Position numbers and translations under genes: made by a program. A stretch of 64,000 nucleotides of DNA from Nemertoderma westbladi (lineage: Eukaryota; Animalia; Xenacoelomorpha): the NCBI GenBank assembly GCA_032718475.1, contig JAUCBJ010002904.1, forward strand, positions 1 to 64,000. Direction: 5' to 3'. Shown here piece after piece: positions 1 to 64,000 of this stretch. Position 1 is the first letter of the stretch. Each line of letters opens with the position of its first letter. A model generated the notes under the pieces. The model did no database searches, was not told the DNA's origin, and saw only the letters and a list, made by a program, of their open reading frames with translations.

Positions 1-783
1 GCTTAAATTATCGAAAGTATAAACTGTTACCTAATTAATCAATCGAATCGAAAGACAGCATTAACTCACTTAATTTAATTGCATTAATCATATTGTTTGT
101 ACTGTTATTTTACCGTCAGTTATTAATTGTACCTATTTGTTGATGGAAATATTGCTCTTTGGATAATACGGATAAATCACCCAAATTCCCAATTTTCTTG
201 ATACACTACAGGTTAGAGAGACCGGCTATACATAACAATTGCGATTTATATTAATGTGGTGTGTATTGAATCCAATGTTATTTAGCAGACCCTACGTGAG
301 TCAATTGCTGCTCTCTTTATGTGTGATCAAATATACTGACGGTCGGCAGAATAGTGTGTATGATTGTGATTGGTAACAAAGTATTTCCTAAAGAATACGC
401 TTTATGCTTCAATCATAAGCAGTATCGTTGCGTTTTAGTATAAGTCTTAGTTCTGTTTAAATAGATAAAGCGCCACGTCTTAAAGGAACTGTTAATATTT
501 CCCGAAAGCCAATAATATCTGTCAGAGATTAATTATTAACGATCTATCGAATAATACAGTAGGTATACACTGCAACCTTACACTGCAATAATAAAATTTA
601 AGCATCCGAATTCAGTCTCCCGGGTGTAGATCCATCGGGTGAATGATCGCGCATGGGCTGATTTCGGCTAGTGTTTTGCGTATTAGCATAAAATATTGTC
701 GTGTGCTAAAGTGGTTTTAATTAACTAAAAGACATATAAATTTTGGTAGGTTAAACTGCTAAAGGTCTTCAAAAGCGCGAACA
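1..783 (+). mobile_element. LTR C: distal part of a third BEL-family LTR, in opposite orientation, inserted into the 3' LTR of element A; runs off the window start
   Basis: Diverged reverse-complement match to the LTRs at 9066 and 58554. Ends ...AAAAGCGCGAACA at 783, and sequence matching 10141-10290 resumes at 784. Confidence 0.85.
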
Positions 784-989
784 ATGTCCTCTAAAGTACA
801 CATACAGAAGAAATAGCTTTTATGTCCCCTAAAAACACCGGTACAGCAATGACACGGCCTTTTATGCCTGCTAAACCAACTACAGAGTACTTAACGGGGA
901 AAATAACCGGGCAATTCCGCAAAAGCTTTTACACCGCTCCCAGAAAATGGGATTTTAGTCTATAAAATATAAAAATCACAGTTTCTAAA

Positions 990-8710: not shown

Positions 8711-9054
8711 TGTACAATCTGAGCAGGGTTACACGCCTTCTGCTCAATATTATCCTACTAGTAAATAAAACTGACAGAAATAGACCTAAGTAAAATCCCA
8801 ATAAAAACCAGGCGTCCCCGATTTAATATCGAGACCTACCGGTATATAATTATCAAAATCGAATAATACTGCTGTACCTGTACTGCTGTAAGTACCGGTC
8901 CAGATGATCAGGCAGTCAGGCCTACTGGTTACCGGTCGACCGGTACTTTAGTCTTGATCGCTTACGCCGCAATCAAGATCCTACAAACTGTTATTGTTCT
9001 TACCAGAACAATATTAAACTGTATTTATTGCCTACACTGCAATCAAGAATTTTA

Positions 9055-9065
9055 CAAACGGTTAT
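9055..9065 (-). promoter_or_regulatory. Non-tRNA primer-binding site of copy A (ATAACCGTTTG)
   Basis: Abuts the LTR end with no TGG. Exact 11-nt inverted repeat of 9811-9821 inside the LTR. Confidence 0.75.
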
Positions 9066-10290
9066 TGTTCGCGCTTTTAAGACCTTTGGCAGTTTAACCC
9101 GCCAAATCTATATGTCTTCTAGGTTATAAATCTACTCCAGCCTATGACAAGTATTGAACACCTATAATAATTCTAACATTAGCCAAAGCCAGTCTGTGCG
9201 CGACCATTCACCCGCTGGATATACCCGGGAGACTGGATTTGGATGCTTTAATTTGATTGCGGTGCAGGCCTACCGTACTATTCGATTGATCGTTAATATA
9301 TAATCTCTGACGAATATTATTCACTTTCGGGAAATATTAGCAGTTCCTTTAGTTCCTTTAGTGGCGCTCTATCTATTTAAACAGAGCTATGACTTACACT
9401 ATACACAACAGTATGTCTTATAGATCACCAAAGTGCATTCTTTAGGAAATGCTTTGTTACTCGGTCAAGCACACACAGACTATTGCACACAACTGCACAC
9501 TGAATTGCCGACATTCACTGATTTTAATCATATATAAAGAGAATAACAACCGACATTTGGAGGGCCTATTAAGTAGCATTGAACTCACTACAAACCACGA
9601 TAATATATGTCGCAAATTGTTATATGTAACCGGTCTCTCTAACCTTAGTGTATCAAGAAGATTGGGTTTTCGGATCGTTATCAATATTCTTCCCAATAAT
9701 AATATGTAAACGAATGATACAATTAACAACACAGTAAATAGCAGTAAATAATGCGGCAAAAAGCAGTTTACGTCAGGGTGCTTAATCAGATGCCGAGGTG
9801 CAAAACCGTGATAACCGTTTGATGATCTTATAATTAAAGACGCTCTAATGTCAGAAAACATTCCCCGGCCGGTGTTCTAGGCGTGGGGGAAACGTCAGTA
9901 CTGAACCCTGTAATTCTGCTGTACAGCTTTTACACAAAGAGGGAATCTCTGATTGGTCGAATGGCAAAGAGCTCCACGTGGACACAGCTGATAGATGTCG
10001 TCATTTTGAGCTGAGCAGAACAAAGAACCAAGGCAAGGCTCCGGGCAAGCTACACGTGTAAAGCTCAGCCGTTAGCTGTCGTCATAGTAACGACAATGTT
10101 TCAAGAGGATCTAGGGCGTTGCGTCATAGAATTGCTAATTATGTCCTCTAAAGTACACATACAGAAGAAATAGCTTTTATGTCCCCTAAAAACACCGGTA
10201 CAGCAATGACACGGCCTTTTATGCCTGCTAAACCAACTACAGAGTACTTTACGGGGAAAATAACCGGGCAATTCCGCAAAAGCTTTTACA
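9066..10290 (-). repeat. 5' LTR of BEL copy A (1225 bp)
   Basis: TG...CA termini. Homologous to 29388-30562 and 58554-59755. Confidence 0.92.
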
Positions 10291-29288: not shown

Positions 29289-29387
29289 TAATCGTCTGAA
29301 ACAACTGTGCGAGACACGATGGGTTGAATGGCATGACTCTATTATTATATTCCTTGAACTGTAAAAAGCCGTGGTAGAGACTCTTGA
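29289..29387 (+). pseudogene. hAT transposase, middle fragment between the two LTR elements
   Basis: Reads NRLKQLCETRWVEWHDSIIIFLEL (hAT TRW motif). Confidence 0.85.
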
Positions 29388-30562
29388 TGTTCGCGCTTTT
29401 AGACCTTTAGCAGTTTAACCCGCTAATTTTAGGTGTCTTCTAGTTTGTAAATCGACTTTAGCCTATAACAAGTATTTGTTGCATATAAGATATAAAGTTA
29501 CACTAGCCGAAGCCAGCCTATGCGCGACCATTCACCCACAGTTAAGGGAGACTGGATTCGGAGGCTCTGACCTTATTGCGGTGTAGACTTACTGTACTAT
29601 TCGATTGATCGTTAATATATAATCTCTGACAAATATTATTTACTTTCAGGAAATATTAACAGTTCCTTTAGGACGTGGCGTTCTAATTATGTAAACAGAG
29701 TTATGACTTACACTAAACACAACGGGATGGCTAATGATTTTCGTATAAAGCGCATTCTTTAGGAAATGCTTTGTTATCTGTCACACTCATGCACACTACC
29801 GCACACTGCTGCACACTGATCTGCCAACCTTCACTAAATTTGATCATATATAAAGAGAATAGCAACCGACACATGTAGGGATTATGAAATAGTATTCAAT
29901 TCTCTCCAAAACCACTATAATGTAAGTCGCAATTGCTACAGGTAACCGGTCTCTCTAACCTTCAGTATATCAAGAAGATTGGGGTTTTATGATTATTTAT
30001 CGATATTCTCCAAATATAACAACATATCCATCAACTTCTAACAATTAATAACCGACAGTAAATAGCAGTAAAATAATGCGGTGAAAGGTATGTATAGTAA
30101 GATATGGGCTGATATGCTATGCTGTGCTGAGCCATGTTGCGATAACAGTTATACGTTTCTATGATCAAAGCCGTCGAATGTTTGGCTAAAGTCTGAAACT
30201 AAGAATAATTCCAAAGCCGATATTCTGGGCTCAGGAAAAAGGTAAACAAAGACCGTCATGCATTGCGCGATTTCCTGTAGGCTTCTGTACAAATAAAATG
30301 AAAATCGCTCTGATTGGTCGAGTGAGCTGAACAAAGAGAGTTAAAAGCTCCACATCGACATCAAAATCAGCTGATAGATTTCGTCATCTAAGCCACACTG
30401 TATTAAGAGTATTTTGTCCGCTAAAGTACACATACAGAAAAATGGCTTTTTATGTCCACTAAAACACCTACAAAGTAAGAAAACGGCTTTTTATGTCCGC
30501 TAAAACACCTACAAAGTACTTTGCGGGAAAAATGACTAGTTATATCCGCAAAAGCCTTTACA
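29388..30562 (-). repeat. 3' LTR of BEL copy B
   Basis: Direct repeat of 58554-59755. Confidence 0.96.
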
Positions 30563-30639
30563 CCGCTCCCAAAAATGGGATTTAATTCTATAAAATATAA
30601 AAAATCACAGTTTCTAAAATATAAAAATACTCTAAACAG

Positions 30640-39200: not shown

Positions 39201-39495
39201 TTCGCGATTTTGGTTTAAATATTACTAAAACCCAATGGTCACCATTCATAAGGACTGGGAAGTACAAACCATCGTAATTGAATATGTTTATTTTTGAAGT
39301 CCATTGTTTTATGGCATTGTATCCCCCACGTTCAGAGTTTAATATTTCAAAAAAATGTGTGTTGAATGTTCTGTTCAAAGTATTCGTGTTGCAATCGCAC
39401 CAATATCTAAGCAAACTTTCCAAAATATTGTCAGATAACCATCCCTCCTCTTTTAAACTGCCAATATCCATTTCGTATAATGAACAATTGGAAAA
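36299..39495 (-). mobile_element. Penelope-like element (GIY-YIG type), copy 1
   Basis: Absent from the equivalent site in BEL copy A (~3700). Inserted in a (TA)-rich tract. Confidence 0.9.
36535..39471 (-). CDS. Penelope-like ORF (978 aa, uninterrupted): Ulp1/C48 protease, RT, Cys-rich linker, GIY-YIG endonuclease
   Basis: HWVL, YLDS, QFNSYQCG; QDKGN, SFDIINMFPSI, GTAMG, RYRDD, FLDLNI; CYNC..CDCC; NVVYLAIC..QGVGST..RLGNYKS; LRKSERFWI..GLN. Confidence 0.93.
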   Translation of the reverse strand: MDIGSLKEEGWLSDNILESLLRYWCDCNTNTLNRTFNTHFFEILNSERGGYNAIKQWTSKINIFNYDGLYFPVLMNGDHWVLVIFKPKSRKIFYLDSMGGQNIKIINSLKYWIKKEALKNNILDIEIIIEPPIKRVQFNSYQCGVYVCKFGKMCIDSSDGIYNLSYVNDNNINVFRNKMRSLVNDIMSKNNKESLGNLEKSLNVLEQENESIGNVNVTTNSNVKVFNLTEQKIDPGLIKLCSLGPSFVPQPMSVNWDDIQRNWQNFKRKVLWKVFFYKDNMEVINIESADKVDNSLFPPHIASTRNPPKCNIPAIEVFLDSIEKDIFKDTKLKKVRDNIDPQEREALNKFRKTNINDKEYIMRLQDKGNSFVFIDKETDNKKLKEQMDCGSFKKVEKDPSFTILNQITNWTEKWKDLGLSNKWVNYILLNSEPTPGTNYPRIKLHKEQAPARVITSGCGSATENLSQFVETYCKKIANTLPHRVKDTSHMLEIIDELNLHEIADNDILISFDIINMFPSIDNKNGINIVSNKLKENIHLFDVPSDCIIEALEICLKNNVSQYQNEFWIQTDGTAMGPKNSCSYADIVAGDIDIKVINKKKRYPELRCWFRYRDDIFSIWRGSKRRLFEFFKLLNTLDPKLKFTLDIGAKSLHFLDLNITIENNQLTTSVYSIPTDSHIYLNSKSAHPKCQINGIPKGVALRLKRINTKDKDYVTQGNVYKNHLIKCGHNADHVNTVFEEVRNMQRSEARNYKGKNKSIKNPTVLVTTYNPMAPNFKRLINKHYGILESNEMARKILPRNEIIVAYKRNPNLKELLAPSNPYKQLSCIDNPGCYNCSAKKCDCCENYLIETNHFKCVATGKTFKINKRLNCYSENVVYLAICIECNLQGVGSTINFKKRLGNYKSHIKKGVKSCNIGVHFIEKHNKSSKNLKFILIDQLPRRDNCVETIKKLRKSERFWIGMLLTNLKGLNSFHDYIQQ

Positions 39496-40271
39496 ATGAA
39501 CAAGGAACAGCTGAGAAACCTCTTCGCGGTATACCGCGCCGCGGACCAGAAACGCCGTGACTCAACCGGTAATGGTACAGATCTCAATCTTACCAACTCA
39601 GGATTGAGTACCGGAACAGGTGCAGGTATAGAAAACAACTTAGCAGTCCGAATATTGCAAGAGATGCAGGAACTGAGGAAAGAAGTACAAATATCGAATC
39701 AGTTACAGGGGAAAGTCGAGGAATTGTCCGAGAAACTGGACTCTTAGGGATTATTCGTAACCAACAGAGTTTTATAGAAACGGTGGACAGTGAGCGACGC
39801 GAGAGAAATCTGATTATTACTGGGATTAAAGAAACATCTACCGACTCGGGAGGAGAAGGAGACAAGGAAAAGATCTTTGATGTAATTCAAGCTATGGGTT
39901 TAGGTGAAAGAATAACACAGGCAACTATCGCTAGAGAATGGACGATTCAGCGTCTCGGAAAAGAGAACTCCGGATCAAGGGATAGACCCAGGCCCATTCT
40001 GGCTGTTGTCCGCAACAGAGAGGATCGCAACGTTATTTTGAGTAACGCTAAGAAGTTGAAGGAGGCAGAGGCTCCATTCAAAACCACGTATCTAAAGAAG
40101 GATGTTCATCCAAGTATTAGGAAGGAGATGGGTCGCCTGCGTGCGCGAGAATATACGGAGAAGAAAAAGCCACAGAACGAGGGGTGCGAAATATACTTGG
40201 ATTATCGTGAGCGAGTGTTGAAGCGGGACGGTGTAATTATCGACAGATTCAACGCGGTCCTGAGCGCCTAG
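39496..40271 (+). pseudogene. LINE ORF1 (coiled coil plus RRM-like region), one frameshift near 39745
   Basis: RRERNLIITGIKE, RLG..RPRPILA, YLKKD. Confidence 0.85.
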
Positions 40272-43200: not shown

Positions 43201-43324
43201 TAGGGAACTACGTGGTCAATTTCGTTACGTTGGATATTCGTCTTTAGTAGATCTGTTTCGTTGCCAGGATACAAAACAACTGTGTTGCTTCATTGAAAAA
43301 GTATTAGACAAATTTAAATGTTAA
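40272..43324 (+). pseudogene. LINE ORF2: APE endonuclease, RT, C-terminal CCHC (frameshift near 42560)
   Basis: ICSWNARG, LETK, VLGDLNAR, SDH; NYRGISI, FVDFRKAYD, GVKQG, LMDD, YIYLG; ERVCSC..EEH..C. Confidence 0.92.
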
Positions 43325-43459
43325 TCAGTAAATTAGTTGGACAAATATTGTGCTCTACCGTGTTATAATGTGAGTTAATTAATTAAGTTTGTTTTCAGTG
43401 TATTGTGTAATAATTATTGCTTTGTTTATCGAAAGTATTTGTCAATAAAATAATAATAA

Positions 43460-45232
43460 TAATAACATCAGGTTGTGGTAGCGCAACAGAAAATCTTTCT
43501 CAATTTGTAGAAACATACTGCAAAAAGATAGCTAACACATTACCACATCGGGTAAAAGATACCTCACACATGCTGGAAATAATAGACGAATTAAATTTAC
43601 ATGAAATTGCAGATAATGATATATTGATTAGTTTTGATATTATTAGTATGTTTCCTTCTATTGACAACAAAAACGGGATCAATATAGTTTCTAATAAATT
43701 AAAAGAAAATATACACTTGTTTGATGTACCTTCTGACTGCATTATTGAAGCATTGGAAATTTGCCTAAAAAACAACGTATCACAGTATCAAAATGAGTTT
43801 TGGATACAAACAGACGGCACTGCAATGGGACCGAAAAATTATTGTTCTTACGCTGACATAGTGGCAGGAGATATTGATATAAAAGTAAGAAAAAAAGATA
43901 CCCTGAATTAAGATGTTGGTTTAGATACAGAGACGATATATTCTCCATATGGCGTGGTTCAAAAAGGCGTCTATTCGAATTCTTTAAGCTATTAAATACA
44001 TTGGATCCAAAACTTAAGTTTACACTGGATATAGGTGCTAAATCGTTACACTTTTTAGATCTAAACATAACAATTGAAAATAATCAGTTAACAACATCAG
44101 TGTATAGTAAACCTACAGATTCACATATATATTTAAATAGTAAATCTGCCCACCCTAAATGCCAAATCAACGGAATTCCTAAAGGAGTTGCCTTAAGGTT
44201 GAAAAGAATTAACACAAAAGATAAAGACTACGTGACTCAAGGTAACGTGTACAAGAACCACCTAATTAAGTGTGGACATAATGCAGATCATGTAAATACA
44301 GTCTTTGAAGAAGTTAGGAACATGCAAAGATCGGAAGCAAGAAATTATAAAGGAAAAAACAAAAGTATTAAAAATCCAACAGTTTTAGTAACAACGTATA
44401 ACCCAATGGCTCCAAACTTTAAAATACTTATCAATAAACATTATGGTATATTAGAGTCAAACGAAATGGCAAGGAAAATACTACCACGAAACGAAATAAT
44501 TGTTTTATATAAAAGAAACCCAAACCTAAAAGAACTTCTAGCACCATCCAATCCATACAAACAATTATCATGCATTGATAATCCTGGTTGTTACAATTGT
44601 AGCGCTAAAAAGTGTGACTGTTGTGAAAATTACTTAATTGAAACCAACCATTTCAAATGTGTAGCTACAGGCAAGACTTTTAAAATAAACAAACGATTAA
44701 ACTGTTACTCGGAAAATGTAGTATATTTAGCTATCTGCATAGAATGCAATTTACAGGGTGTTGGCTCAACAATCAATTTCAAGAAGAGGCTTGGAAATTA
44801 TAAATCTCATATAAAAAAAAGGTGTGAAAAGTTGCAATATCGGCGTGCATTTCATCGAAAAACACAACAAATCCTCCAAAAACTTGAAATTTATTTTGAT
44901 TGACCAATTACCAAGAAGGGACAACTGCGTAGAAACAATAAAGAAACTAAGAAAATCAGAACGATTTTGGATTGGTATGCTGCTCACTAATATAAAGGGC
45001 TTGAACTCCTTCCATGACTACATTCAACAATAAAAACTTTATTATATTAAGTCTAGGTTACCTTAACAACAAACTAAGAATTACGATATTCTATGTAAAC
45101 AAATTCAAATAAGAATAATAAAAAATAGATTTGATAAAGGCTATGCAATATAGCCGAAATATCATCTGTAGAATAAAAACATAACTTTTCTTAAATACAA
45201 GCAGTAGCATTTATTTCATTTGTCTTCATAAT
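43460..45232 (+). mobile_element. Penelope-like element copy 2: 3' half, inverted relative to copy 1, frameshifted
   Basis: Near-identical reverse complement of 36336-38114. Confidence 0.95.
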
Positions 45233-45440: not shown

Positions 45441-46190
45441 TCACATTGGGGAGTCCCTGGATGTTGGTTGGATTAGGGAGGTGGTCGTGGGAAGAGTATC
45501 TTGCCTTCCATAGTTTCCGGAGAGTTCCCTGTCTCTTTCCAGTAAACATAAATGACCAACTGGGCGATTGAGCTGCTGCGTCTCGAAGACAATTCCTGGT
45601 TTTTTAAAGTTAGGTCGCATGACGACGAGTTCTACAGATCGCACCAAACCATCATCTGAGATATGAGTCTCAATGATACGACCTGTCTGCCACCGCTTAC
45701 GTGGAATATCTGACTCCACAATAAGGACCATGTCTCCTGCGCTGACGTTTTCTTGCTGCGCAAACCACTTAGTTCGAAGTTGTAGCGTAGGCAGATAATG
45801 TTTTTCGAAATGGTCGCGAAACGACGGGATAACAACTGCATAAGTTGCCAAGTTTGCCGGCAGTATTCGTCTCCGTCCGTGATTTCCGATCGTGGTAGCA
45901 TGGCTATAGGTTTCTTCAGTAGGAAGTGCGCGGGTGTTAGCGCTTCCAGGGAATCGGGACTCGATGAGACTGGCATAAGTGGTCTCTCGTTGAGATAGGC
46001 GGCGATTTCCTCCATTAACATCCGCAAAAGTTCGTCGGTGAGATACGCGCGGCACGGCACTATAAAGTGAAATGCGGTCTTCACGCTCCTGATTAATCTC
46101 TCCCAACTTCCTCCCCACCAAGGGGCGACGGCGGCGTTGAAGGTCCAGCTAGAAGCTGTGGGGCGAGCCATGAAGTGAGTGAGCCTTAGC
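45441..46190 (-). pseudogene. pol: BEL integrase, C-terminal part
   Basis: WTFN..APWWGGSWERL, LNERPL, LTPAHFL, GDMVLI..W..GRI..DGLVRSV. Confidence 0.92.
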
Positions 46191-49100
46191 GTAGGGGTAC
46201 CATTAATCAACCTGTCGTTCTGTCGCGTTTTTTTTCAGTATTTTATTTTAAACGTTAATAACTCGGCCAATCCTTGATGAAATCTATCCAAACTTGGTAC
46301 ACATGTTGTTTGGCAAAAGTTTGAAAATTTTCCAAGTAGAATTTGCGTGGGGTCTTCGTGCAGCATCAGTGTAACTGTTATTGCAGTTATAATAAATTTA
46401 TTTATCCAAATTTAAATGCGTTAAATTATTATTACTGTAGGATAAATCAGCTGGTTTTTCTGACAAATTTTGCAATACATTGGGGTTGTCTGCATGTACC
46501 ATGTGTACCGGTACTGTCAGGCTGTACTCTGAATCGAGAATCCTGCAATCAGTCAATACTGCAATACTGGTCAGCCGGTACCATACACTGCAGACATGCC
46601 ATATCATGTAATCTAATTAACCCCGGCAACCCTTGCGGTGATTAAAGTTTAGGCCTAATTAGCCCAGTACCGGCACCGGTAATAATAATATAATAGTTTA
46701 GATAGTTACCGCTAATCATTCAGTCATTGCTGCATTGGCACGGTACACCGTACAGCCGTATTGCTGTACTGCCGTTGTCAGTTGTAGTGCGCACCGTACT
46801 GCCGTAGGTACCACCCATGGCCTACTACACACAGGCCATGACAAGGACTTTGCTGTGAAATTAGCGTAGGTTGACTGTGCTGATTATCAGATTATGGTAC
46901 TGTGGTACAAGCTATATACTGTTAGGTATACTGCTGTACTGGGGTGGGGTTAGGAATAATCCATTGGTTTTAGCATTTAATCCCTTTATTTATTATAAAA
47001 CCATTGGAAATATTCGCAAATGCCGCTCCATTCTGCCATTACTGTCTGAAACGCTCCCGACAGTCCACCAGTCCGATGTATCTGGACCCGAGCAGCCGAG
47101 TTGCTTCAAGAGGTGATTAACGGGGGAATACTACGCAATGCTACGGAATTGCTTGTTTGTCAGTACGATTCTATTTGGGTATTTACTACACTCAGACACT
47201 GGGAATACGGCGGTCAGTCAGATCGTAATGCGGGCCACTGCCAAGTTCCTCATGCCTCACTCCGGTCACCCACCTTGGAGTGCGGTGGGAAGAGTCCCAC
47301 TTACTGACTTACGTCGACGACTGGACGAATCGACGAGGATTGCGATCTGGGTTTAGCGGCGGCCCGGATCCTGGTATCGCCTGGGGGAAATGGTTGAACG
47401 TCGGGCATACTTGTATCGCACTGGATTACGTTCTCTGCGACGTGAAAGTGTGAAGCAAATTCGTTGTCGAATTGGGTCGAAAGCTGCGGGAATTCTACTG
47501 TTCTACGGGAGTAAACCGCAGCGGTCCGGTGACTACGGACGGATACTACTGGGATAAGCAGGTATTTCGATCGAGTTTCTCGTATTCTCGATGCTCGACA
47601 GCTCGAGGCGGATAGAGAGTTGGTTGTGTTGGGCGGTGTTGTTCAATTCTATCAAACGTATTAAATAATTGGTAAAATAATAAAAACACACCAGATAAAG
47701 ATACTGAGCTTATGGTAAAGAGATAGGCCGAACTTACAATTTCCAAATAGATTGTTCATATAATAAATATATTTTTGGTATTTGATTTCAAGATAGGGGG
47801 GGGGGGGACTGGACGCAATAAAAATTCATCCCTCTCCAGGGGAAATTGGACGCAAATAACAACAGCTGATTACTCTCAAAAATAAAACTGTAACCTGTTC
47901 TATTGTGTTTACTTTATTGTTTTGGTTAAAATAACGTGCCACTGTAACCTGCTCCTTTCCCAAAATTGAGAAATTAATATTGAGGCGGGATATTAATTTG
48001 CCAAGATGGGATTTGCGTCCAGTCCCACCCCCCTCCTGTCTCTTGATTTTACTAAAAAATAGAATACATTGCATTTTACTGTTATAATTACTGTATTGAA
48101 TAAAATAATTAATTTATTTTTTATTAAACCGTGCTAAGCACGTTGAACTGGAGCTCTAACAATTCCCCACTAGCGGCAGACAGGAACTGTAAAAGTCTCT
48201 GTAGAATTTCTAATTAAGCAATGCTCTTAGGTAACTACTACTAAATTTCAGATGAATCTGATCGTTGGTTCTATAATTACAGCTATTTTTACGTTTCTGT
48301 TAATTCGCCCCCTAGCGGCAGACAGGGGAACTGTAGAAGTCTGTGTGTGTAGAATTTCAAAATTTTTTATAGACTACATGTGTACCAAGTTTGGTTCCAT
48401 TTCATCCTTGATTGACTGACTTATAAGCGTTCAAACATTCCTGCCACAAACATTGCCAGAGGCAGCCACAAACAAATAAAAGCTGCAGGAACTCTAGCGA
48501 TAATTATTTAATTAATTATTAAATAGTGTTTCAATTAAATTACTTACGAAAATCTAGTCATCTTCTTTTAAATATGGACCCTGCATTCGTGGAAAGTATA
48601 ATATTTGATAATTCAGCAGTCAGCCTACGCTAATTTCACAGCAAAGTCCTTGTCATGGCCTGTGTGAAGTAGGCCATGGTACCACCCTACTACCGGTACC
48701 TGCTGACCGGTGGCAACTAGCACTTCAGCACTTGCACAGCAACAGCACTACCGGTGATACACAGGTTGGAATTTATGTAGAGTTTGCTCAACAGTACAGA
48801 TATAAAATAGTTATCTAAATTATATATATTACTATTGACAAGTATTGAAATATATACCGTTATTCGTTTTATCAGTATTTGCAACATCTGACATTGAAGA
48901 GGTGAGAGAAGATGAATACCGGCACTCAACAAAACCAACGCTTATCACAGGTCGGTATGGTTACCTCGAAACCGGCGCGACTGTCCACTCGAATACAACT
49001 TCAAAACACAAACACCAACAATAAACTGAAAGCGAATCGTAAGTTTTCAGAAGAATCTGTCATTGGGACGAAGAAAAGGAAGCCGAAACCACGGGAATGG

Positions 49101-49643
49101 ACCACAGCTAAGATTGAATGCTCCCATTGTCAGAGTTCCTGGACCGAAATTGAAACACCAATTACTGATGGGCTTGATCTCTCAAACCAAAACTTCCTCT
49201 GCGGTGTTTGCGCGGCAGTAAAGATTGAAAGTCTGGAAGCTGGCATCCCTAGGTATTATTATTATAAAGAGCGTCAGCCTGCATTTAATAAATATATTTT
49301 AATACAAAACAGGTCGAACGCAAAGAGGCTTATAATGAAGACGAGTACTGCATTGATTATATTCCTATAAACCACCTGGCTTTGCATATTGAACGTGCGT
49401 TTGGAAATAAGTTCGTGCTACCCTTCCGTGGGTGGTAGATGTTGCGGTTATGTATTGGTGGGAGGAGGGGGGGGGGGGGGGGTGCAGATTTAAAGGGGTG
49501 AACACGTACTGTCCCCCTTTCTTTGATTAATTGGTGGTGTGGGTTAATCTCTCATAACCTGATTTTGTGATACAGTCGCACAATTTTAATTTGTATCTCA
49601 TAACTGGGCCTCGTGCTGCGCGAAGGCCCCACGAACGTGTTAC
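46191..49643. mobile_element. Unclassified 3.45-kb composite insertion in the BEL integrase
   Basis: 7-bp TSD CCTTAGC at 46184-46190 and 49644-49650. Removing it restores VDDQLRLTHFMARPTASSWTFN. Confidence 0.85.
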
Positions 49644-52600
49644 CCTTAGCTGATCGTCCACCTGTCTTTGGTTCCAATCTTTGACGTAAGCCTTGATTTC
49701 ATTGTTGGCACCAATGAAGTTCGTTCCCTTATCAGATCTCATTGTGTTGCTAGTTCCAAAGCGAGCGATCTGTTGGCGTAGACTCAGTATGAAACTGTTG
49801 GTAGATAGATCGTTCACCATATCTAAATGGATCGCTCTACAAGTCATACAGACAAAGATGACACACCATCTCTTGACTATAGTCCTAGCACGATATACTT
49901 CAATAGGGCCAAATAAATCCACACCAGTATTAGTAAAGGGTGGTTCATAGAAGCTTACTCGTTCCCTAGGTAATTCTGCCTCTCGCTGTGTTAAAGGCCT
50001 ACTGAATGCTTTCCTACAGGGTATACAGTTCCTAAGAACTTGGTTCAGAGCTCTACGGGGTTTATGAAAATAATAGCGAGTTCGAATTTCGCTAAGAACT
50101 CGTTCTCTACCAGCATGATAAAGCTTACTGTGAACATCTACAATCATCTTGATTTGTATTTCAAGATTTCTAATGAGTATGGGAAACTTAGTGTCAAAGG
50201 ATAATGGAGCATTAGTTAGTCTTCCTCCAACGCGTATTAACCCATCTATCATTGTGCTAGAGAAACGATCCCTTAAGCGCATCTGTGGATTTCTCAACAA
50301 CAGGAAATACTTATCGGAATCCTCATAGCATTGCAGGAGTCTCAGTATCTGCTTATTTGTTTCTTCATGCTCCTGGTAACTGATCCTCTCCTTCAGAAAT
50401 CTGTCTGATATCTTGTATTTGGGAAGATCTTTAACAACATGGACCTGACGCAGATGTCAGTGGAGCAGTATCACTAGCGGTCTTCGTCCTGGAGTAGTGA
50501 TGATGAAAACATCGCTTTAAATATGTAACGGCCTTACAAAGCCGATTCCAGGAGCTATAGTGATGTATCGCTCTCTGCAGGAGAGGTGAGAGTCCTTGCG
50601 AGACGTCTGGTGTTCCAGATTTCCAATCTCTCTCTCTGATTTCCACAACAGACTTATTTGTGGCTGGGGGTTTTGGATCCAAAGCGTCGTCTCCGGAAGT
50701 GTGTAGTACAGACAGATCTATCACGGGTTTAAATAACTTCGATTTACTCGCCCGGGTTTTAGGTTTGACTTTCTCCGCTCCCTTGGCTTGTCTAATCTCC
50801 GCCGTAGTAAGATGAGGAGGCCATTCATCCTCTTCTTTGCTTAGGAAGTCGGGTCCACCTAACCAGTCTGGAGTATCTATCAGTTCTTGTGGAGTTGCTC
50901 CCCTGGAGGCGATGTCGGCTGGATTAATCGTCCCGGGGCAATGTCTCCATTGATCTATCTTCGTGCGACTAAGTATAATGGCTACTCTGTTGGTAACGAA
51001 GACGCTGAACTGACAGACTTCATTGGTTATATACTCCAACACGAGTAAAGCATCGGTCCAATAGACAGTTTTCTCCAGTGGATAGTCGATCTGTTCTGTT
51101 ACATTCCGGCCGATGGCTGTAGCGTATAGAGCCGCTTTTAACTCCGCTCGAGGAACTTTCAACTTGTTGTTTATCAAGGCCTTAGAGGTAACCAAGGCGA
51201 CCTTAATTCCATCCGGAGTTTCAACTCTCAGGTAGGCTACTATACCTATTCCCATATCGCTGGCGTCTCCAAACACATGGAGTTGATAGGAATACGTGGG
51301 GAGAACGTGACCAAAATATGAACGGGAAATTATAAAGTTCTCGATGGATGGTAGAGAATCTTCCCATTTCATCCACTTCTTTAATAGTTCTCCCTTAAGT
51401 GGATCGTCCCATGAGTGGTTTTCAAGCCACATTTGTTGTACTAAACTCCGAGCAATCAATATAACTGGGCTAATAAATCCCAATGGATCGAAATAAGTGC
51501 TCAGGATACTTAGACAAATCCGTTTAGTCCGAACTGGATTATCTCGCTGTTTTAGCTGGAAAAACAGGATATCTCTCTCCGTGTCCCATTTCAAACCAAG
51601 CGTCTTGGTTTCTGGAAGATCGTCCTTGATAAGGTCTAGATCTTTAACTCCTCGGTCTTCTACCGGGATCGATTCCAGAAACTCACGGGAGTTACTGGTG
51701 AATTTAGTTAATCGAAATCCACCTCTTTTCAAGCACTCTACCGTTCCTTTGGCGACATCAATGGCTTCTTCCACCGATGGGAGGGACTTTAAATTGTCGT
51801 CCATGTATATATCCCGTTTGATGTTGTCGATAACCTCTTTGGAGAAGGCGTCCCGGTTGTCATCAGCAGTGGTGCGCACTACTGAGCAGGCGTTTGAAGG
51901 GCTCGAGATGATCCCAAAAGCCTGGATGGTCATCCAGTACTCCACCGGTTTCTGGTTGAGGTCTCCTTCAGGCCACCACAGAAATCGTAGGCTGTCTCGA
52001 TCTCTATCCAGCGCCTTAACTTGTAAGAACATGCCTTCTATATCGGAGGCGAAAGCGATTGAATATTGTCGTAATCTTAAGAGTATTCCCAACAAGGATT
52101 GGAGTAAGTTGGGTCCCGGCAACAACTCGGAGTTAAGGGATTGGCCCATGTAGAGGGCGGAGCCGTCAAATACTACCCGGACTTCGTTGGGTTTACCGGG
52201 TTTGGGAACGTAATGATGTGTTAGATAGTACGTTCTCTCAGTTATGGGTGTTTCTTCCGGTACTCGCTCCGCATATCCCTTGTCAATGAATTTCTTCAAC
52301 TGGGTCTTGTACATCTCCTTAGCTGAAGCATTTGCCGTAAGGCGTCGATGTAGTTGCGCAATTCTCTTCTCCGCCAAGGGTCGGTTGTTTATAAAATTGG
52401 GTTCTCGCCGTCGGAAAGGCAGACCAATCTCATACCTACCTTGATCTTTAAGAAAACGTGTAGTCGTTTCCTGTATCTGCTTGGCTCTTTCTTCTTCTAC
52501 CGATAGGGCCTTATCGTAGGAATTGGGCTCTACAGCCTCTTGAGTAAAGAATCGTACGGCGTGTTCATCACGAGTCTTCGCGTTGTAACGATCTATCACT

Positions 52601-55600
52601 TCATTCAGTTCGTCGTTGTAATCGACTTGTCCCGCTGGATGAATGAGGTGACATAGGTTCACTTGGTTTTGCCAAGTTTCATTTTCCGTAAGGAGGTCGA
52701 TGGTATTCTCCTCGTCGAATAGTTGGTGGATATCGTCATTATCTGAGGAGTATGGTGTTCCCTCAGGTGTGTCGTCTCCCTCACTGATCTCCTCTTCCCA
52801 TTCACTCACCTGGTAGACTCGTTCTTTGGGTAGCCTTTCCATGAGAGTTCTACGGGAAGGTCCAGTAAAGTACCAACCTACTCTAGTTCTTCCCGCATAG
52901 GTTTGCAGTGGTTGCGGTTGAGCAGGCCGTTTTTCCAATGTCTCAAGCGCCTCATGCGCATTTTGGCCGATGAGTATTTGTACTCCAGGGTAGTCTGTGT
53001 TGAATCTAGGTATCTCATGCTGCTGGGTGAAATCGTCCTCATCCCAGTTATAAGGTTCCACTTGGCTGGTAGCGAAGTTCTTTATCGCCACCATTTTTAC
53101 TGACCTTATACTGTGTTCTCCTAGTTCATCCTGGGGGGTGGACAACGCGCCTACATAGTAGTCTGTAGTTACTGTAGATTTCCAAACCTGCATAATTCCT
53201 GAAAGGTTCAACTTAGTTCGGAACTTGGGTTGTCCAGCAAAGATGTCTTCGGCTAGTTCTTTGTCGATGAATGTTCCTGTGCTGCCGGAGTCAAGGAGGG
53301 CGTTCACTATATAGCTCTTTTCTGACCCGTGGACTCTCAACTGCACTACAGGAAATTCTCAGATTCCTACGTTGGAAGTTGGTGCTTTCCAAGATGGTTG
53401 TCGGTCAGGAATAGTTAGGGGGAGCTCACTATCGGTTTCCTTCTCATACGTAAGTGCTTGATACACTGCGGTGTTTATTAGGTAACAGGATTCGTTTTCG
53501 TCGGAGAATTCATCCGTATAGAATCCTTCCATCTCAGAACTTTGGTCAGTGTCGTTCATATCACTGAATTGGACATGTGGTTCGGACTCACTTACCTGAC
53601 TCAGGCTGTTTCTTTCGAATTCAGTGTGCAACAAGATATGATGTTTTGCGCCGCACTTTGCACACCTTGCGTCGGAGTAACAGGTTCGCCGTTGGTGTCC
53701 TTGTCTGAGGCAATTATAACACAACCGCTTATCCCACATGACTTCACATCTATCTTTTAATGATTTCTTTAGGAATTCATCACACACACTCAAACAGTGG
53801 GGCCCGTCACACAGCGCACATTTCGGTTTGATGTTACTTACCTTACTTTGGGTAACGTTGTGCACACTCGTTCTTTCCTCGGGCTTTCTTCCGTGAATTC
53901 TCTTAGGAGACGTAGGAGGAGTTTTTCTTACCTGTTCTCTCCTGTCATTAGTTCGAGACTTAAATTTACTTACGTCTTTAGACGCTTTGTTGACATAGTA
54001 AGATCTTTCAGTGTCTTTCCCGCTGTCCTCTTCTTGAGAAGCCTGGCTTTCGCCGTCGTCTGTATAACACACTGGTGTTACCTTTCTCCTAGAAACGGGT
54101 TTCTCACTTACCTTATTTTCTGGTGTCTTCTCTCTAGACTGCTTTAGGAGCTGTAATTTTACCTCTCCATCTAAGAATGACATGAGATCAGCCATGGTAG
54201 GGTCTCGTCGTTGTTGTTCCATCATATATAAGACTTTCTTGTCCCAGCGTGTACCTACTCCACCCTTTGTTAAAGTAGAGGCCACGGCTCCAATAACCAT
54301 AGAACTCTGATACTCATGAGACTTACCTAGCCAATCTAATTGTCTACAAATCTCCTGGATCTCATTGGAAAATTCTATAATCCCGGTGCTAAGAAACTTT
54401 CGTGGTGCTACTAATTTCGCATACAAATACCTAGCTATGTTATTCCTATTACCATACCTGATGTTTAGTGTATCCCAAACTTGTCTTAATCCATCTGGAT
54501 GTCCAATAAACTTTAACGCCATTAACTTGGGAGATCCTTCCAAGCACTCGATGAGGAATCTAAGTTTCTCTCCGTTAGATAGCACAGAGTTCTGTATGTT
54601 ATCTTTATAATATTCATTAAAAGGTAACCATTTCATCTCATCTCCGTTGAACTTGACGATCTCTCCCACCTTTACCGCTTGACCGGCTTTGGTTCTAGCC
54701 ATTTGACGCATAAAACTTTCTTGGGCCTTCGTGTTATTTAATATCGAGTTATCGGTATATAAATTTCTCGGATTATGATCAGGTCTATATGGAATATCAT
54801 TGTCAACAGGTTTATAATTACCCTTAAGAGGGTTTATTATAGGAGTTTCTACTTCACTAGCAGTATAGATGCGTGTAGGCTCCACACCTTGCGCATGAAA
54901 TACTTCAGACCTGACAGGTTGACACATTGTTACAGAGGGTGGTGGTATACCCCTTTGTAGATTTACTAACTTATCGCGTTCTAACGCGATACTCTGCTGC
55001 ACTTCCTGCAATTCTAACCTACTCTCTCTTACTGTTCCCCTTAACTGTTGAACAGTCCCCTCCAACTCTCGGACCTGCTGGGAGGAGCGTGTCTGATTCT
55101 CCTCCATCTGCCCGAGGAGAATATCCATCCCCCGCCGTCGCTCATCCACCCACTCTACCACCGAAGCGGGAGCTGCCAACATAGTAGCGGGCAGACGAGG
55201 GACGACGGGCGATAAATCTTTAATGTCTCGCTCGGCGTCCAGGACATGAATTGTCTCAGGGACTGTTCTACTGGGCACAGGTAGTTTAGTACTGTGCAAA
55301 GGGAATTTAGAGGTAGGTTCTGGGAGTACAGTTGTCTCTATCACCGAAGGGGTGGCTTCGAGAACAGGCCTGATTATTTCAGGCTCATCTACTATAGTAG
55401 GGAGTCTTTCTACTCTAATAATTTGGTCTGTGGGTTCTGTACAACCTAAGTCTGTGCTAGCTAGTTGCCTTCTCACGGCTGGGGGCAAATTAGGCAATTT
55501 CTGACGGTGGGGCGTTCTTCTACGCCTGCTGAGACGAGATCTATTTCCTCCGCCTTCAGGATCTGTTGTATCGCCTTCATCAGATGATGTAAATCCCTGT

Positions 55601-57114
55601 CGCTTGGGAGTAGATAGACTTATCATCTGCCACTGACTAGCTGTTCTCTGTTTATCTATGTAGTCTTGCTTCTCTAGAAGATTTTCCAACTCTAGTTGGG
55701 TGGTCTCTTCAGACGCCCTCCGTTCTGCTTCTGCCACTGCTACCTTTCTTTCCGCTTCTGCTGCTTTTCTTTCCACTTCTGCTGCTGCAACTGCCGCTTT
55801 TCTTTCCACTTCGGCCGCTTTTCTTTCCGCTTCGGCCGCTTTTCTTTCCGCTTCTGCCGCTGTCATTGCCGCTTTCCTTTCCACTTCTGCTGCCTTTCTT
55901 TCCGCTTCTGCCTCTGCCGCTGCCGATGCTGCTGTCTTTCTGTCTTCTATACGTTTTTTCTTTACTTGTTCTTCTTGAACCCTAGCGATGCGGCTGCTTT
56001 CATCAAATTTAGCTTGGTTCGCAGCTAACATTTCCGCATCTATTGCGTCCAACACAAACTTGGCTCCTTCACTATTAGGACGAAGTCCAGCAAGCTGTCT
56101 CCTCAATTCTTCGTCACCTAGAAATCATTGATAGTCCGACAGATAGAGGTCAATAGCGTCCTTCTTCTGAGGTTTCTCTGCTGTCGCTTCGCTTTCCACT
56201 TGAGAAAAGGTAGCGTCTGTTGATTCTCCGTGGGTTGAGCGCTCAGCTAGCTGAAATTTCCACTGGGCCATTCCTTGAACTTTGAGACCCACCCGCTGGA
56301 ACCAAGTCTTTACGGCAACTTGCAACGACGTGTCTTGGCTTCTTTTCGAAGCTTCCTCAAAGGCCGATAGGATTAGTCTGATTCTTAGAATTCTTTCTCG
56401 AACTTGATAAAGCAGCTCTCCCTGCTCTTGAGGTCCTTGGGGTTGTTGAAACAGTTGTTCCTCTAATCGCTCCAAAGAGCTGAAGAATCCCTGTACATAT
56501 CCTGCTGCCGACCTCTTCCACACAGCTGGATCTCTAGTGTCCCTTACCACTCCCATCCTGTATAAGTCCTCCCAGGCAGCTTCCGATAAGTTAAACGGGA
56601 GTCCGGGTCTCGGGAAATTCCATTGCGTCTCGACAATAGACTTCAGTTCCTCCTTTGTGTATCCCGCATAACTGTCCTTGGTCGATCGCTTACTTCTCGC
56701 CCAATCCATTTGATGTTCCTCCACCGCAATCAATACTCTAGTGAGTACGGCTTCAGGAAGAATGAGAAGTGGATCCGAATAAACTACTTCGGCCATCTTT
56801 GCTCCGCGCTCGGGTGTCAACTCTACAGTATCTGAACTACTGGAGCTATCGGGCCGCTGAGAAATAAGTTCTCGGCTCGAGTGTTGCTGTTGTTTAACAG
56901 CTGCCTCTTGGTCCCGCTTGACTTGAGCCCGAGTGCCTATGATAGAGCTACGGTGTTTGACTAGCCTAGGGTCTGATACTACTACTGGAGGGATGACCTT
57001 TCTTACAGTAGGCGGGGAGTTGAACTTCGGTCTCAAACGTTCCGCACTCCTATCTGGATCACAGATTGTTGTATCTAGGAGACTGTCTGACAGATTTTGC
57101 TTTGTGTCAGCCAT
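49644..57114 (-). pseudogene. gag-pol: BEL gag-pol polyprotein (single frame with premature TGA stops at 56125 and 53359, frameshift near 50450)
   Basis: Three BEL knuckles (CALCDGPH..C, CYNCLRQGH..C, CAKCGAKHHILLH). LLDSGS; RVVFDGS, DIEGMFLQV, YMDD; FGDASD, PRAELKA; H..H..CIPC, DLFGP, SDKGTNF. Confidence 0.96.
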
Positions 57115-58542
57115 GTTTGTTTGTACAGTTGAATACTTACTGCTAGAACTACAGTTAAAGCAAGTCTAGTAATTCAGTATCAACTACAAGCCTAGTAATT
57201 AATTACCGATACCGTTACTCAGTGTAACGTGTTATATATACAATATATTAGAATACCGGTATACACTTATAGTATATATAAGTATTATTACGGACTAGGT
57301 TTCTTCACAGGATACCGGTATATAATTTCAGCGCAAATATATATAAATATATAATAAGCCTACTGTGAATACCAGTATACAGCTTAGCTTACACTTATAG
57401 TATATATAAGTATAATTATAGACATAAAATTAATTACAGAATACCGGTATATAATTTCAGCTTAAATTTATAGAAATAAATATAATAAGCCTATCGTAAA
57501 TACCGGTATGTTAATTATTTTATAATAACTGAATTTCTGAATTTTAGGGTTACCTTTCTTTACTTTGTTACTGTTATTAAGCAGTAGTCCAACTGATATT
57601 AAGACCTAATTGATGGATGACAGGCCTACTATTTTATAAATCGGTTTGAGTTGATTTATAATATATATATACCCGTTTAATGGGTTTTGTTACAATATTT
57701 GAAATAAATGTTATTATTTCTAGGCAAGGAGTCACTTTACAGAAGCTGAACGCTCTCAGTGTAGTGCTACTTATTGGACACTAAAACAAATAATTCTAAT
57801 TTACTAAGTTACTTATTACTTACTACAAATTACGTACAATTAAGGGGTGAGATTACAATCTCTAAATAAACACAAAAATTACACGTACAAATTTTAGGGT
57901 AATTTTACAGGAAATTTACAAACCAGCCTAACAAGGGGTTAGAATTTCTGGTTATTACAACGGACAAGATACTATGGTATTTGAAAATAATTAAGCAGTA
58001 GTAAATATATTGCATTGTCTAGATAAGAAAATACCACCGTCTGACGACTTATAGTCTCTAGCTTACAGCTCTATAAGTACTACGTTATGTACCCGGAGTG
58101 TTCCTACCTAGAAGTTAATTACCGCAGCCAATGGGGGGGGATTTACCTTACAGCACTGGATGCCCCCACGTTCCTAACTAGTACTTTATCAGACATACAC
58201 TCTACACACACTGCAATCTCTTCAGACCTAACAACAGTCAGACAACAATCCAGCCTACAAATTACTTGTACAATCTGAGCAGGCTTACACGCCTTCTGCT
58301 CAATATTAACTTACAGATAAATAAAACTGACAGAAATAAGTAAAATACCAATAAAAAACCAGGGCTGCAGTCCCTGATTAAATATCAAGACCTACTGGTA
58401 TATAATTATCAAAATCGAATAATACTGATGTACCTGTACTGCTGTAAGTACCGGTTCGGGTGGTTAGGTAGTTAGGCCTACTGGTTACCAGTCGACCGGT
58501 ACTTTTCGACTTTATTGCCTACGTTGCAATAAAGAAACTACA

Positions 58543-58553
58543 ATAACTGTTAT
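58543..58553 (-). promoter_or_regulatory. Non-tRNA primer-binding site of copy B (ATAACAGTTAT)
   Basis: Abuts the 5' LTR. Exact inverted repeat of 59306-59316 (also 30142-30152 in the 3' LTR). Confidence 0.75.
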
Positions 58554-59755
58554 TGTTCACGCTTTTAGACCTTTAGCAGTTTAACCCGCTAATTTTAGCT
58601 GTCTTCTAGTTTGTAAATCGACTTTAGCCTATAACAAGTATTTGTTGCATAAGATATAAAGTTACACTAGCCGAAGCCAGCCTATGCGCGACCATTCACC
58701 CACAGTTAAGGGAGACTGGATTCGGAGGCTCTGACCTTATTGCGGTGTAGACTTACTGTACTATTCGATTGATCGTTAATATATAATCTCTGACAAATAT
58801 TATTTACTTTCGGGAAATATTAACAGTTCCTTTAGGACGTGGCGTTCTAATTATGTAAACAGAGTTATGACTTACACTAAACACAACGGGATGGCTAATG
58901 ATTTTCGTATAAAGCGCATTCTTTAGGAAATGCTTTGTTATCTGTCACACTCATGCACACTACCGCACACTGCTGCACACTGATCTGCCGACCTTCACTA
59001 AATTTGATCATATATAAAGAGAATAGCAACCGACACATGTAGGGATTATGAAATAGCATTCAATTCACTCCAAAACCACTATAATGTAAGTCGCAATTGC
59101 TACAGGTAACCGGTCTCTCTAACCTTCAGTATATCAAGAAGATTGGGGTTTTGTGATTATTTATCGATATTCTCCAAATATAACAACATATCCATCAACT
59201 TCTAACAATTAATAACCGACAGTAAATAGCAGTAAAATAATGCGGTGAAAGGTATGTATAGTAAGATATGGGCTGATATGCTATGCTGTGCTGAGCCGTG
59301 TTGCGATAACAGTTATACGTTTCTATAATCAAAGCCGTCGAATGTTTGGCTAAAGTCTGAAACTAAGAATAATTCCAAAGCCGATGTTCTGGGCTCAGGA
59401 AAAAGGTAAACAAAGACCGTCTGCATTGCGCGATTTCCCGTAGGCTTCTGTACAAATAAAATGAAAATCGCTCTGATTGGTCGAGTGAGCTGAACAAAGA
59501 GAGTTAAAAGCTCCACATCGACATCAAAATCAGCTGATAGATTTCGTCATCTAAGCCACACTGTATTAAGAGTATTTTGGCGTATTGCGGCATAAAATGG
59601 CTTGTTATGTCCGCTAAAGTACACATACAGAAAAATGGCTTTTTATGTCCACTAAAACACCTACACAGTAAGAAAACGGCTTTTTATGACCGCTAAAACA
59701 CCTACAAAGTACTTTGCGGGATAAATGACTAGTTATATCCGCAAAAGCCTTTACA
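58554..59755 (-). repeat. 5' LTR of BEL copy B (1202 bp)
   Basis: Direct repeat of 29388-30562, followed by TSD CTTGA. Confidence 0.96.
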
Positions 59756-60369
59756 CTTGATGACATACAAACAGGACCGTATTCAAGTGAAGCAGCAACG
59801 AAGGCAGGGCTTCTTTATAATGCAGTTTTGAAGCCTGATTTTATAATAGCATTGGCGACGATGGAGCGTACTTCATCCTTAGTTCTCCCACTTTCGAAGG
59901 CCCTACAATCCATCAACCAAGATCTGTTGCAAATGAATTGGTAACTGAAGTGATCCAAGTTCTGAAGGATGACCGAATAGATGCAGCGAATGAGTTTAAT
60001 AATGTTGTGTTTCGTAAGGCAAAGACCCTTTGTGATCAATTTAGTGTTGATATATCGATTCCCAGAAGAGCAGGACGACAGACACATCGTTCAATCTATT
60101 CCACTTCCAGCCCAGAGGAGTTCTTTCGTCTTGCTATATTTAACCCATACTTGGATTATTTAATTCAAGAATTAACTTCACGCTTCAAGGACCAACAGGA
60201 GCGTTGTGGTTTCCTCTGGTGTATCCTACCTCATAAGCTTATAGATAGCTATAATGTAGACAGTATTAAGAAAGTTATGGACGTATATAAAGAAGATATT
60301 GACTCCCTGGTAAAACTAATCCAATCGTTTGCTGCATGCCACAGTAGAAGAATGGATTTCGTCCTATAA
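59756..60369 (+). pseudogene. hAT transposase, 3' part (truncated before the dimerization domain)
   Basis: LPLSKALQS, PRRAGRQTHRS, EEFFRLAIFNPYLDYLIQELTSRF. Confidence 0.85.
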
Positions 60370-60860: not shown

Positions 60861-61170
60861 TAGTCTGTGCCTCAGTGATGCATAGTCTGTGCCTCAGTGA
60901 TGCATAGTCTGTGCCTCAGTGAGGCATAGTCTGTGCCCCAGTGAGGCATAGTCTATGCCTCAGTGAGGCATAGTCTGTGCCTCTGTGAGGCATAGTTTGT
61001 GCCTCAGTGCCTCAGCGAGGCATAGTCTGTGCCTCAGTGAAGCATAGTCTGTGCCTCAGGGAGGCATAGTCTGTGCCTCAGGGAGGCATAGTCTGTGCCT
61101 CAGAGAGGCATAGTCTGTGCCTCAGTGAGGCATAGTCTGTGCCTCAGTGAGGCATAGTCTGTGTCTCAGT
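60861..61170 (-). repeat. 22-bp tandem array (right TIR end), ~14 units
   Basis: Reverse complement of the 12087-12269 array. Confidence 0.95.
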
Positions 61171-62377: not shown

Positions 62378-64000
62378 TGTGATCATATCGCCAGCCTCCC
62401 TGAATGTGATCATATCGCCAGCCTCCTTGAACGTGATCATATCGCCAGCCTCCCTGAATCAGAGCTTTGCTGAATCAGATCACATCGCCAGCTTCCTTGA
62501 ATGAGATCATATCTCCAGCCTCTCTGAATGTGATCATATCGCCAGCTTTGCTGAATCAGATCATATCGCCAGTCTCCCTGAATGAGATCATATCGCCAGC
62601 TTTGCTGAATCAGATCATATCGCCAGCCTCTCTGAATGTGATCATATCGCCAGCCTCTCTGAATGTGATCATATCGCCCGCCTCCCTGAATGTGATCATA
62701 TCGCCAGCCTCCTTGAACGTGATCATATCGCCAGCCTCCCTGAATCAGAGCTTTGCTGAATCAGATCATATCGCCAGCTTCCTTGAATGAGATCATATCA
62801 CCAGTCTCTCTGAATGTGATCATATATCCAGCCTCTCTGAATGTGATCATATCGCCAGTCTCCCTGAATGAGATCATATCGACAGCTTTGCTGAATCAGA
62901 TCATATCGCCAGCCTCTCTGAATGAGATCATATCTCCAGTCTCCCTGAATGTGATCATATCTCCAGCCTCTCTGAATGTGATCATATCGCCAGTCTCCCT
63001 GAATGTGATCATATCGCCAGCCTTGCTGAATCAGATTATATCGCCAGCCTTCCTGAATGAGATCATATCTCCAGCCTCCCTCAATGTGATCACATGTCCT
63101 GCCTCCCTGAATGTGATCATATCTCCAGCCTCCCTGAATGGATCATATCTCCTGCCTCTCTGAATGTGATCATATCGCCAGTCTCCCTGAATGTGATCAT
63201 ATCTCCAGCCTCTCTGAATGTGATCATATCGCCAGTCTCCCTGAATGTGATCATATCGCCAGCTTTGCTGAATCAGATTATATCGCCAGCCTTCCTGAAT
63301 GAGATCATATCTCCAGCCTCCCTCAATGTGATCACATGTCCTGCCTCCCTGAATGTGATCATATCTCCAGCCTCCCTGAATGGATCATATCTCCAGTCTC
63401 CCTGAATGTGATCATATCACCAGTCTCCCTGAATGTGATCATATCGCCATCCTCCCTGAATCAGATCATATCACCAGTCTCCCTGAATGTGATCATATCG
63501 TCAGTCTCCCTGAATGTGATAATATTGTCAGCCTCTATGAATGTGATTATATCGCCAGTCTCCCTGAATGTGATCATATCTCCAGCCTCCCTGAATGTAA
63601 TCATATCACCAGTCTCCCTGAATGTGATCATATCGCCAGTCTCACTGAATCAGATCATATCGCCAGCCTCCATGAATGTGATCATATCGCCAGCCTCATC
63701 GCCAGCCTCCCTGAATGTGATCATATCACCAGTCTCCCTGAATGTGATCATATCGCCAGCTTTGCTGAATCAGATCATATCGCCAGCCTCCCTGAATCAG
63801 ATCATATCGCCAGCCTCCCTGAATTTGATCATATCGCCAGTCTCCCTGAATGTGATCATATCGCCAGTCTCCCTGAATATGATCATATCGCCACTCTCCC
63901 TGAATGTGATCATATCGTCAGCTTCTATGAATGTTATCATATCGCCAGCTTTGCTGAATCAGAACATATCACCAGTCTCCCTGAATGTGATCATATCTCC
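62378..64000 (+). repeat. 27-bp minisatellite, ~60 copies, runs off the window end
   Basis: Unit TGTGATCATATCGCCAGCCTCCCTGAA with recurring variants. Confidence 0.98.

Follow-up and report, generated by a model that had tools for sequence, protein, structure and literature searches.

How does a retrotransposon begin minus-strand DNA synthesis when no TGG follows its 5' LTR? The question is raised by a BEL/Pao family in the window, that is, the whole stretch of 64,000 nucleotides of DNA analysed here. The explanation that we favour, with a probability of about 0.8, is that these BEL/Pao elements prime the minus strand with a stretch of their own LTR RNA and not with a host tRNA.

The window is repeat-rich animal DNA with a GC content of 40.7%, in which three members of a single BEL/Pao family, A, B and C, can be recognized. 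Copy B (59756-29388, minus strand) is complete end to end, harbors two nested insertions and is bounded by the TSD TCAAG at 29383-29387 and 59757-59761. Its 5' LTR (58554..59756, minus strand; 1203 bp, TG...CA) and its 3' LTR (29388..30563, minus strand), which the PPT abuts, are the same at 1159 of 1173 aligned bases (98.8%). The LTR end of copy B was set independently, at the point where the two LTRs diverge past GAACA, and the TSD and PPT concur. Copy A (10290-784) carries an internal deletion; over the first 150 bp its 5' LTR (9066..10290, minus strand; 1225 bp) is identical at 149/150 positions to a 3' LTR remnant (784..933, minus strand), into which the LTR of element C cuts. The latter LTR (1..783, plus strand), overlooked by an earlier note on this DNA, belongs to the third family member, whose PBS lies beyond the window. 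The gag-pol of copy B (45441..57165, minus strand) encodes a gag with a triple Cys-His array, protease, RT (YMDD), RNase H and integrase, and is interrupted by in-frame stops and by an insertion within the integrase; both A and B are broken in coding. Copy B also has extra 3' ORFs. These ORFs, of 539 and 429 aa, lie between the integrase and the 3' LTR (30640-34229, minus strand), have no Pfam match and are common to copy A at about 1165-3717. The 429-aa ORF contains Cys/His knuckle-like motifs, and a Protein Atlas search with the 539-aa ORF returned no usable match.

The assignment to BEL/Pao made in the earlier note is borne out by the encoded domains. Pfam matches in the family are DUF1759, Peptidase_A17 and Integrase_H2C2, and the best RT/RNase H matches, 38-46% identical, every one of them carrying PF05380, include named proteins of cnidarians, fish, echinoderms, molluscs, brachiopods and tunicates. 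Pao-type gag and pol domains follow the PR-RT-RH-IN order, the translation of copy B contains the acidic motifs of RNase H, and three Cys-His boxes are seen in the gag translation. Three such boxes in gag are a trait of the BEL/Pao family. The TG..CA LTRs, the PPT and the TSD are likewise those of BEL/Pao. An RT phylogeny, proposed in the earlier note as a check, placed the relatives, while the window RT forms a long branch (1.85) whose position is unsure. The ICTV profile describes Belpaoviridae as elements of 4.2-10 kb, primed by tRNA-Arg or -Gly at an 18-nt PBS (PMC8742986). The window elements share with it the LTR-gag-PR-RT-RH-IN order, the Pao domains, the PPT and the 5-bp TSD. They differ from it in having no tRNA PBS, as neither A nor B shows TGG or the 18-nt match to a tRNA-Arg or -Gly 3' end, and in size, copy B measuring about 18 kb after its two insertions are subtracted. 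The PBS feature in the profile is descriptive; membership of BEL/Pao is decided by RT phylogeny.

What stands in the place of the tRNA site is a complement of the LTR itself. The PBS of copy B (58543..58553, minus strand; ATAACAGTTAT), at offset 0 from the LTR end, is the exact reverse complement of an 11-mer within the LTR (59306..59316, minus strand; ATAACTGTTAT), our candidate self-primer, whose counterpart in the 3' LTR lies at 30142-30152. Likewise, the PBS that abuts the LTR of copy A (9055..9065, minus strand; ATAACCGTTTG) is the exact complement of the candidate self-primer at 9811..9821 (minus strand; CAAACGGTTAT). In both copies the match is 11/11 and the next base is mismatched on either side; the loop from PBS to 11-mer measures 752 nt in B and 745 nt in A, and the two 11-mers occupy the same LTR alignment columns. 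Between A and B the PBS differs at positions 6, 10 and 11 and the 11-mer at 6, 2 and 1, with pairing retained. The earlier note had described the lack of TGG, the exact 11-nt pairing in both copies, the similar offsets and the three differing positions at which pairing is kept, and each point was confirmed on the two PBS/11-mer pairs that lie inside the window. Element C has a homologous 11-mer at 20-30, identical at 8/11 positions to that of A and likewise to that of B.

Could the match be due to chance, or to correction between inverted repeats at the DNA level, with no function in RNA? The sequence is AT-rich and the PBS of copy B is a near-palindrome, 10/11 identical to its 11-mer as a direct repeat; copy B alone is therefore ambiguous. 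The PBS of copy A agrees with its 11-mer at 6/11 positions as a direct repeat and at 11/11 as a complement, which rules out the direct-repeat reading. Markov-shuffled LTRs reach 11 nt in 1/1000 trials for B and 0/1000 for A, and each PBS, when tested against the LTR of the other copy, finds 6-7 nt only. Together with the three compensating changes, the shuffles leave the idea hardly credible, and since complements occur only across intron-like junctions in 11/15 related families (see below), they do not stem from DNA hairpins. We regard chance or inverted-repeat correction as largely refuted.

Copy A holds a second LTR end plus PBS, displaced 71 nt downstream (8984..8999, minus strand) and also overlooked by the earlier note. 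At position 6 this displaced PBS carries the base of B, which leaves one mismatch to the 11-mer of A; only the LTR-adjacent PBS position of A follows the LTR, and the displaced one does not. The underlying feature is a 71-nt duplication of LTR end and PBS (8984-9065, minus strand), and the LTR-end part of the second copy pairs with the preceding bases as a 9-bp hairpin. A computed fold places a 9-bp hairpin directly after the PBS of B as well (58510..58534, minus strand), and a 10-bp counterpart with one compensating change follows the displaced PBS of A.

Is this pairing peculiar to one family? An RT/RNase H alignment search gave 90 relative loci at 37-44% identity, all on metagenome contigs, in which copies may be merged; LTR ends were fixed by 5'/3' LTR divergence where both LTRs exist. 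A first test, for contiguous complements only, was mostly negative. The partial matches in the relatives start directly past pyrimidine-rich AG sites, and removal of a GT..AG segment from the LTR yields exact complements across the junction. Among families with divergence-fixed LTR ends, 14/15 have a self-complement of 10-15 nt located 0-4 nt past the LTR. Eleven of the 15 match only across a GT..YAG junction, over 10-15 nt (L017, L021, L024, L030, L033, L041, L044, L048, L056, L069 and L071), and three are contiguous over 10-11 nt (L003, L074 and L086); the sole miss, L002, pairs at 10/11 positions across a GTGAG..CAG junction. L028 (junction, 11 nt) and L079 (contiguous, 12 nt) match too, but as their LTR ends were placed manually or post hoc, they stand outside the count. 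As controls, PBS/LTR pairs combined across the 17 families reach 10 nt in 6/272 cases, and host flank past the 3' LTR, taken as PBS, in 0/16. The junction donor is GTAAG in 10/11 families and GTTCG in one, and the intron-like segments are 67-164 nt long with 45-58% T.

The tally was drawn from the 90 loci by leaving out 24 that were too short, 25 that an automatic step found to be without an LTR pair, and those with the 3' LTR off the contig. L002 was restored after the automatic step, L064 (with a repeat other than an LTR) and L054 (whose end is not CA/TA) were removed, and one locus was kept per family. Another 45 loci, scanned with looser settings, gave 12 junction matches, of which L023 is misplaced and three represent the same element; the additions are L013, L025, L035, L051, L060, L066, L073, L076 and L081, and the misses are mostly loci without an LTR. 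L045, L004 and L006 are further junction-type relatives, and families with self-complements are scattered over the whole tree of relatives. The LTR of L004 (about 1560-3204) is 1.6 kb long owing to an intron-like segment of 1022 nt, without which an 11-nt complement of the PBS forms, the LTR end having been chosen by the scan. An exact LTR-end pattern search in metagenome contigs found nothing, and no relative was found in viral contigs scanned twice. Loci L001-L010 are BEL/Pao animal contigs inside GTDB bacterial MAG representatives, likely through host contamination.

The PBS sequences differ among all 17 related families and the LTR partner follows; TGG occurs within 0-3 nt of the LTR in only one (L048, at +1). 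Non-TGG starts after the LTR also occur among Repbase entries for aquatic BEL elements. Given that the PBSs all differ, no single host RNA explains them, and the recurrence of the self-complement in different letters in 14/15 families supports self-priming better than the window alone had done when the earlier note proposed it for this BEL lineage. At the level of sequence, what is new here is that self-complementarity is general in distant BEL/Pao relatives, mostly across intron-like junctions.

The 11-mer of the window family is contiguous, with no intron splitting it in the LTR. It contains a GT, and a spliced reading with this GT as donor and an acceptor 172-187 nt further on was considered; it gives a 10-nt match (shuffle p 0.04-0.09). 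We rejected it on donor score, -0.6 and 0.6 compared with 6.6-12.5 for 13 training donors. Because the 11-mer is contiguous and its inner GT is no donor, the window family is most simply intron-less, likely the same form as L003, L074 and L086. Its derivation by intron loss is an inference, given the long RT branch and unsure place in the tree. L074 shows both states within one family: an acceptor is present in the 5' LTR (the donor side lies off the contig) and the joined form at the same place in the 3' LTR, these LTRs being 88% alike, on a contig that may merge two subfamilies. Its tree neighbors L006 and L076 retain the intron. Loops in the relatives are about 70-210 nt, three to ten times shorter than in the window.

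How would such a primer work? By analogy with Tf1, as far as the primer sections of PMC4600332, PMC5341516 and PMC11042837 describe it, the genomic RNA would include the 11-mer and fold it back on the PBS, probably with help from the nucleocapsid. As in Tf1, the element's own RNase H would then cleave where the duplex ends on its 3' side and so free a 3'-OH, and RT would extend the primer across the loop and then jump to the 3' R. During plus-strand synthesis the PBS would be rewritten from the primer, which is retained; such copying would keep PBS and 11-mer matched and would make the PBS equal to the splice junction in the relatives. In most of these the primer would exist only once the host splices the LTR intron in the 5' copy, the 3' LTR copy being left unspliced, by which the intron would be inherited. 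If the 3' LTR were spliced now and then, LTRs would arise that lack the intron and hold the primer in one piece, and the window family probably originated in this way. We consider it reasonably probable that a large aquatic branch of BEL/Pao thus does without tRNA priming, building its primer by splicing the 5' LTR and leaving the 3' LTR unspliced, and that families of the window type escaped this dependence through intron loss.

Does the primer coincide with the extreme 5' end of the transcript, as it does in Tf1? The odds of this are about even. The exact Tf1 mode, a special case of self-priming in which the transcript begins with the 11-mer and these 11 nt are freed as primer, has in our estimate somewhat less than an even chance. 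Both window matches end at 11 nt, the PBS copies at 58543-58553, 9055-9065 and 8984-8994 all start with ATAAC as that of Tf1 does, and the sharp ends at 10-15 nt in the relatives fit a short primer copied to its 5' end. In leader folding, the helix gains weight only if the RNA starts at the 11-mer, with a probability of about 0.24 in B and 0 in A; it is 0 for an RNA that starts 90 nt upstream. On the other hand, neither A nor B has a TATA-like word near -30 of the 11-mer. Such words lie at -11 (A and B) and -113 (A), with CCAAT at -135/-164, and in A the combination of CCAAT and a TATA-like word suggests a start about 85 nt upstream of the 11-mer. Among relatives, TATA-like words at -29 to -44 (5/16) or at -118 to -133 (4/16) align at no shared position and mark no start site, and the intron-bearing families would require a first exon of 4-9 nt. 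The proposal of the earlier note that transcription starts near 59316 or 9821 is thus unsupported, as the motifs do not mark the 11-mer. ATAAC is shared with the Tf1 PBS, although the relatives' PBSs start otherwise; the agreement may reflect convergence or chance.

The loop of 750 nt, and the weak cis helix that it gives in folding, would also suit a primer supplied in trans, from a separate short or cut LTR transcript co-packaged with the genome. In the DNA runs, words from the LTR have much greater depth than those from the internal region, which is compatible with many solo LTRs as a source. However, each PBS matches its own LTR and only 6-7 nt of the other, as pairing in cis explains directly, and we judge a trans primer improbable.

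The family is present in three DNA runs; no RNA run was among those listed as containing it. Contigs aligned on the B LTR thin steeply at 59268-59304, immediately past the 3' end of the 11-mer as the element is read, and four family contigs with differing letters 3' of the 11-mer rejoin at 59301-59305. Among the 40 rows listed of 303 substitution rows on the B LTR, none falls inside the PBS or the 11-mer. In the alignment on the PBS, substitutions above 2% among the rows listed are at positions 1, 5 and 8, at 3-12% of a depth that is mixed with reads from the 3' LTR flank, and the eight listed indel rows are all at 58537-58540, just past the PBS and none inside it. These contig alignments, which favor B-like copies and give no haplotypes, show conserved borders of PBS and 11-mer, not further co-variation.

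Might the pairing be structural, serving packaging, dimerization or translation, with a tRNA half or other small RNA of the host as the actual primer? Many relatives' PBSs open with GTTYRA-like words, and the 11-mer of B has what we take to be a 7-nt likeness to the anticodon loop of tRNA-Asn. The 11-mer of A has no Asn-like word, the PBS changes between A and B and across 17 families with the LTR partner tracking it, and no host RNA would track such changes. No tRNA gene was found within the 64-kb window, and an Rfam search of 57200-59800 gave no match. Priming by half-tRNAs is known in Copia lineages, according to the part of PMC6317226 that deals with priming, and still a host small RNA seems to us an unlikely primer here.

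Priming by an LTR-derived stretch has its closest known parallel in the Tf1/sushi group, where self-priming has been described (PMC6934838, PMC6317226, in their passages on priming). In the excerpts consulted of PMC11042837, PMC4600332, PMC5341516 and PMC6934838, Tf1, Tf2 and Tj1 and the sushi elements Maggy, Skippy, Cft-1 and Tcn1 resemble the window family in having no tRNA PBS and an LTR-complementary PBS that abuts the LTR. The corresponding excerpt of PMC11042837 gives a Tf1 PBS that begins with ATAAC, in agreement with the primer end GUUAU given in the earlier note, and a Tf1 cDNA that keeps the copied PBS. Tf1/sushi elements are Ty3/gypsy chromoviruses, whereas the window family is BEL/Pao, with a 750-nt loop and a primer that is predicted; because its domains are those of BEL/Pao it is not a Tf1/sushi member, though Tf1-like in its predicted mode. 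Most BEL/Pao relatives further differ in that an intron-like segment splits the complement, a split of which we found no mention in those portions of the Tf1/sushi literature that were searched. The earlier note knew of self-priming only from Tf1/sushi, and this was too narrow, as the relevant section of PMC6317226 predicts it for Tcn1 and also for Copia TAR elements (Houba, Osr-1). The latter are alike in having an LTR complement of at least 10 bp located 0-5 bp past the LTR, compared with 11/11 in A and B; they differ in being plant Copia elements with a contiguous complement (same section). The earlier note knew of no BEL/Pao precedent, and in the results of our full-text literature searches, neither self-priming in BEL/Pao nor a splice-built primer was found, although a brief remark in passing may have been made before. 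In the searched text of two BEL/Pao surveys (PMC3118150, PMC554778) the terms PBS, tRNA and self are absent.

If these elements do self-prime, self-priming extends to one more LTR superfamily, the third; this runs counter to the ICTV account, in which Belpaoviridae use a tRNA, and means that Gypsy, Copia and BEL/Pao have each gained or kept a way of priming without one. A splice-dependent primer would couple the replication of these retrotransposons to RNA processing by the host, and splicing would offer either the host or the element a replication switch. LTR finders that demand a tRNA PBS would under-call such elements, and the PBS would predict the exact splice junction and cut site in the relatives.

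The window contains other repeats as well. One of the insertions in copy B (36336-45232) has inverted arms of 1.8 kb that are 99% identical and ORFs with Ulp1-protease and GIY-YIG (Penelope-like) domains, and between its arms lies a LINE-type APE+RT ORF (40272-42563). A retroelement ORF with Ulp1 protease, PHD finger and RT domains is found at 18180-22651 (plus strand), and a Gypsy-type RT-RNase H-integrase fragment at 25807-28960 (plus strand) adjoins the 3' LTR of copy B. Tandem arrays with units of 68, 22 and 27 bp occupy 24250-25149, 60861-61170, 12091-12269 and 62470-64000, the 22-bp arrays lying inside a repeat that occurs twice in inverted orientation.
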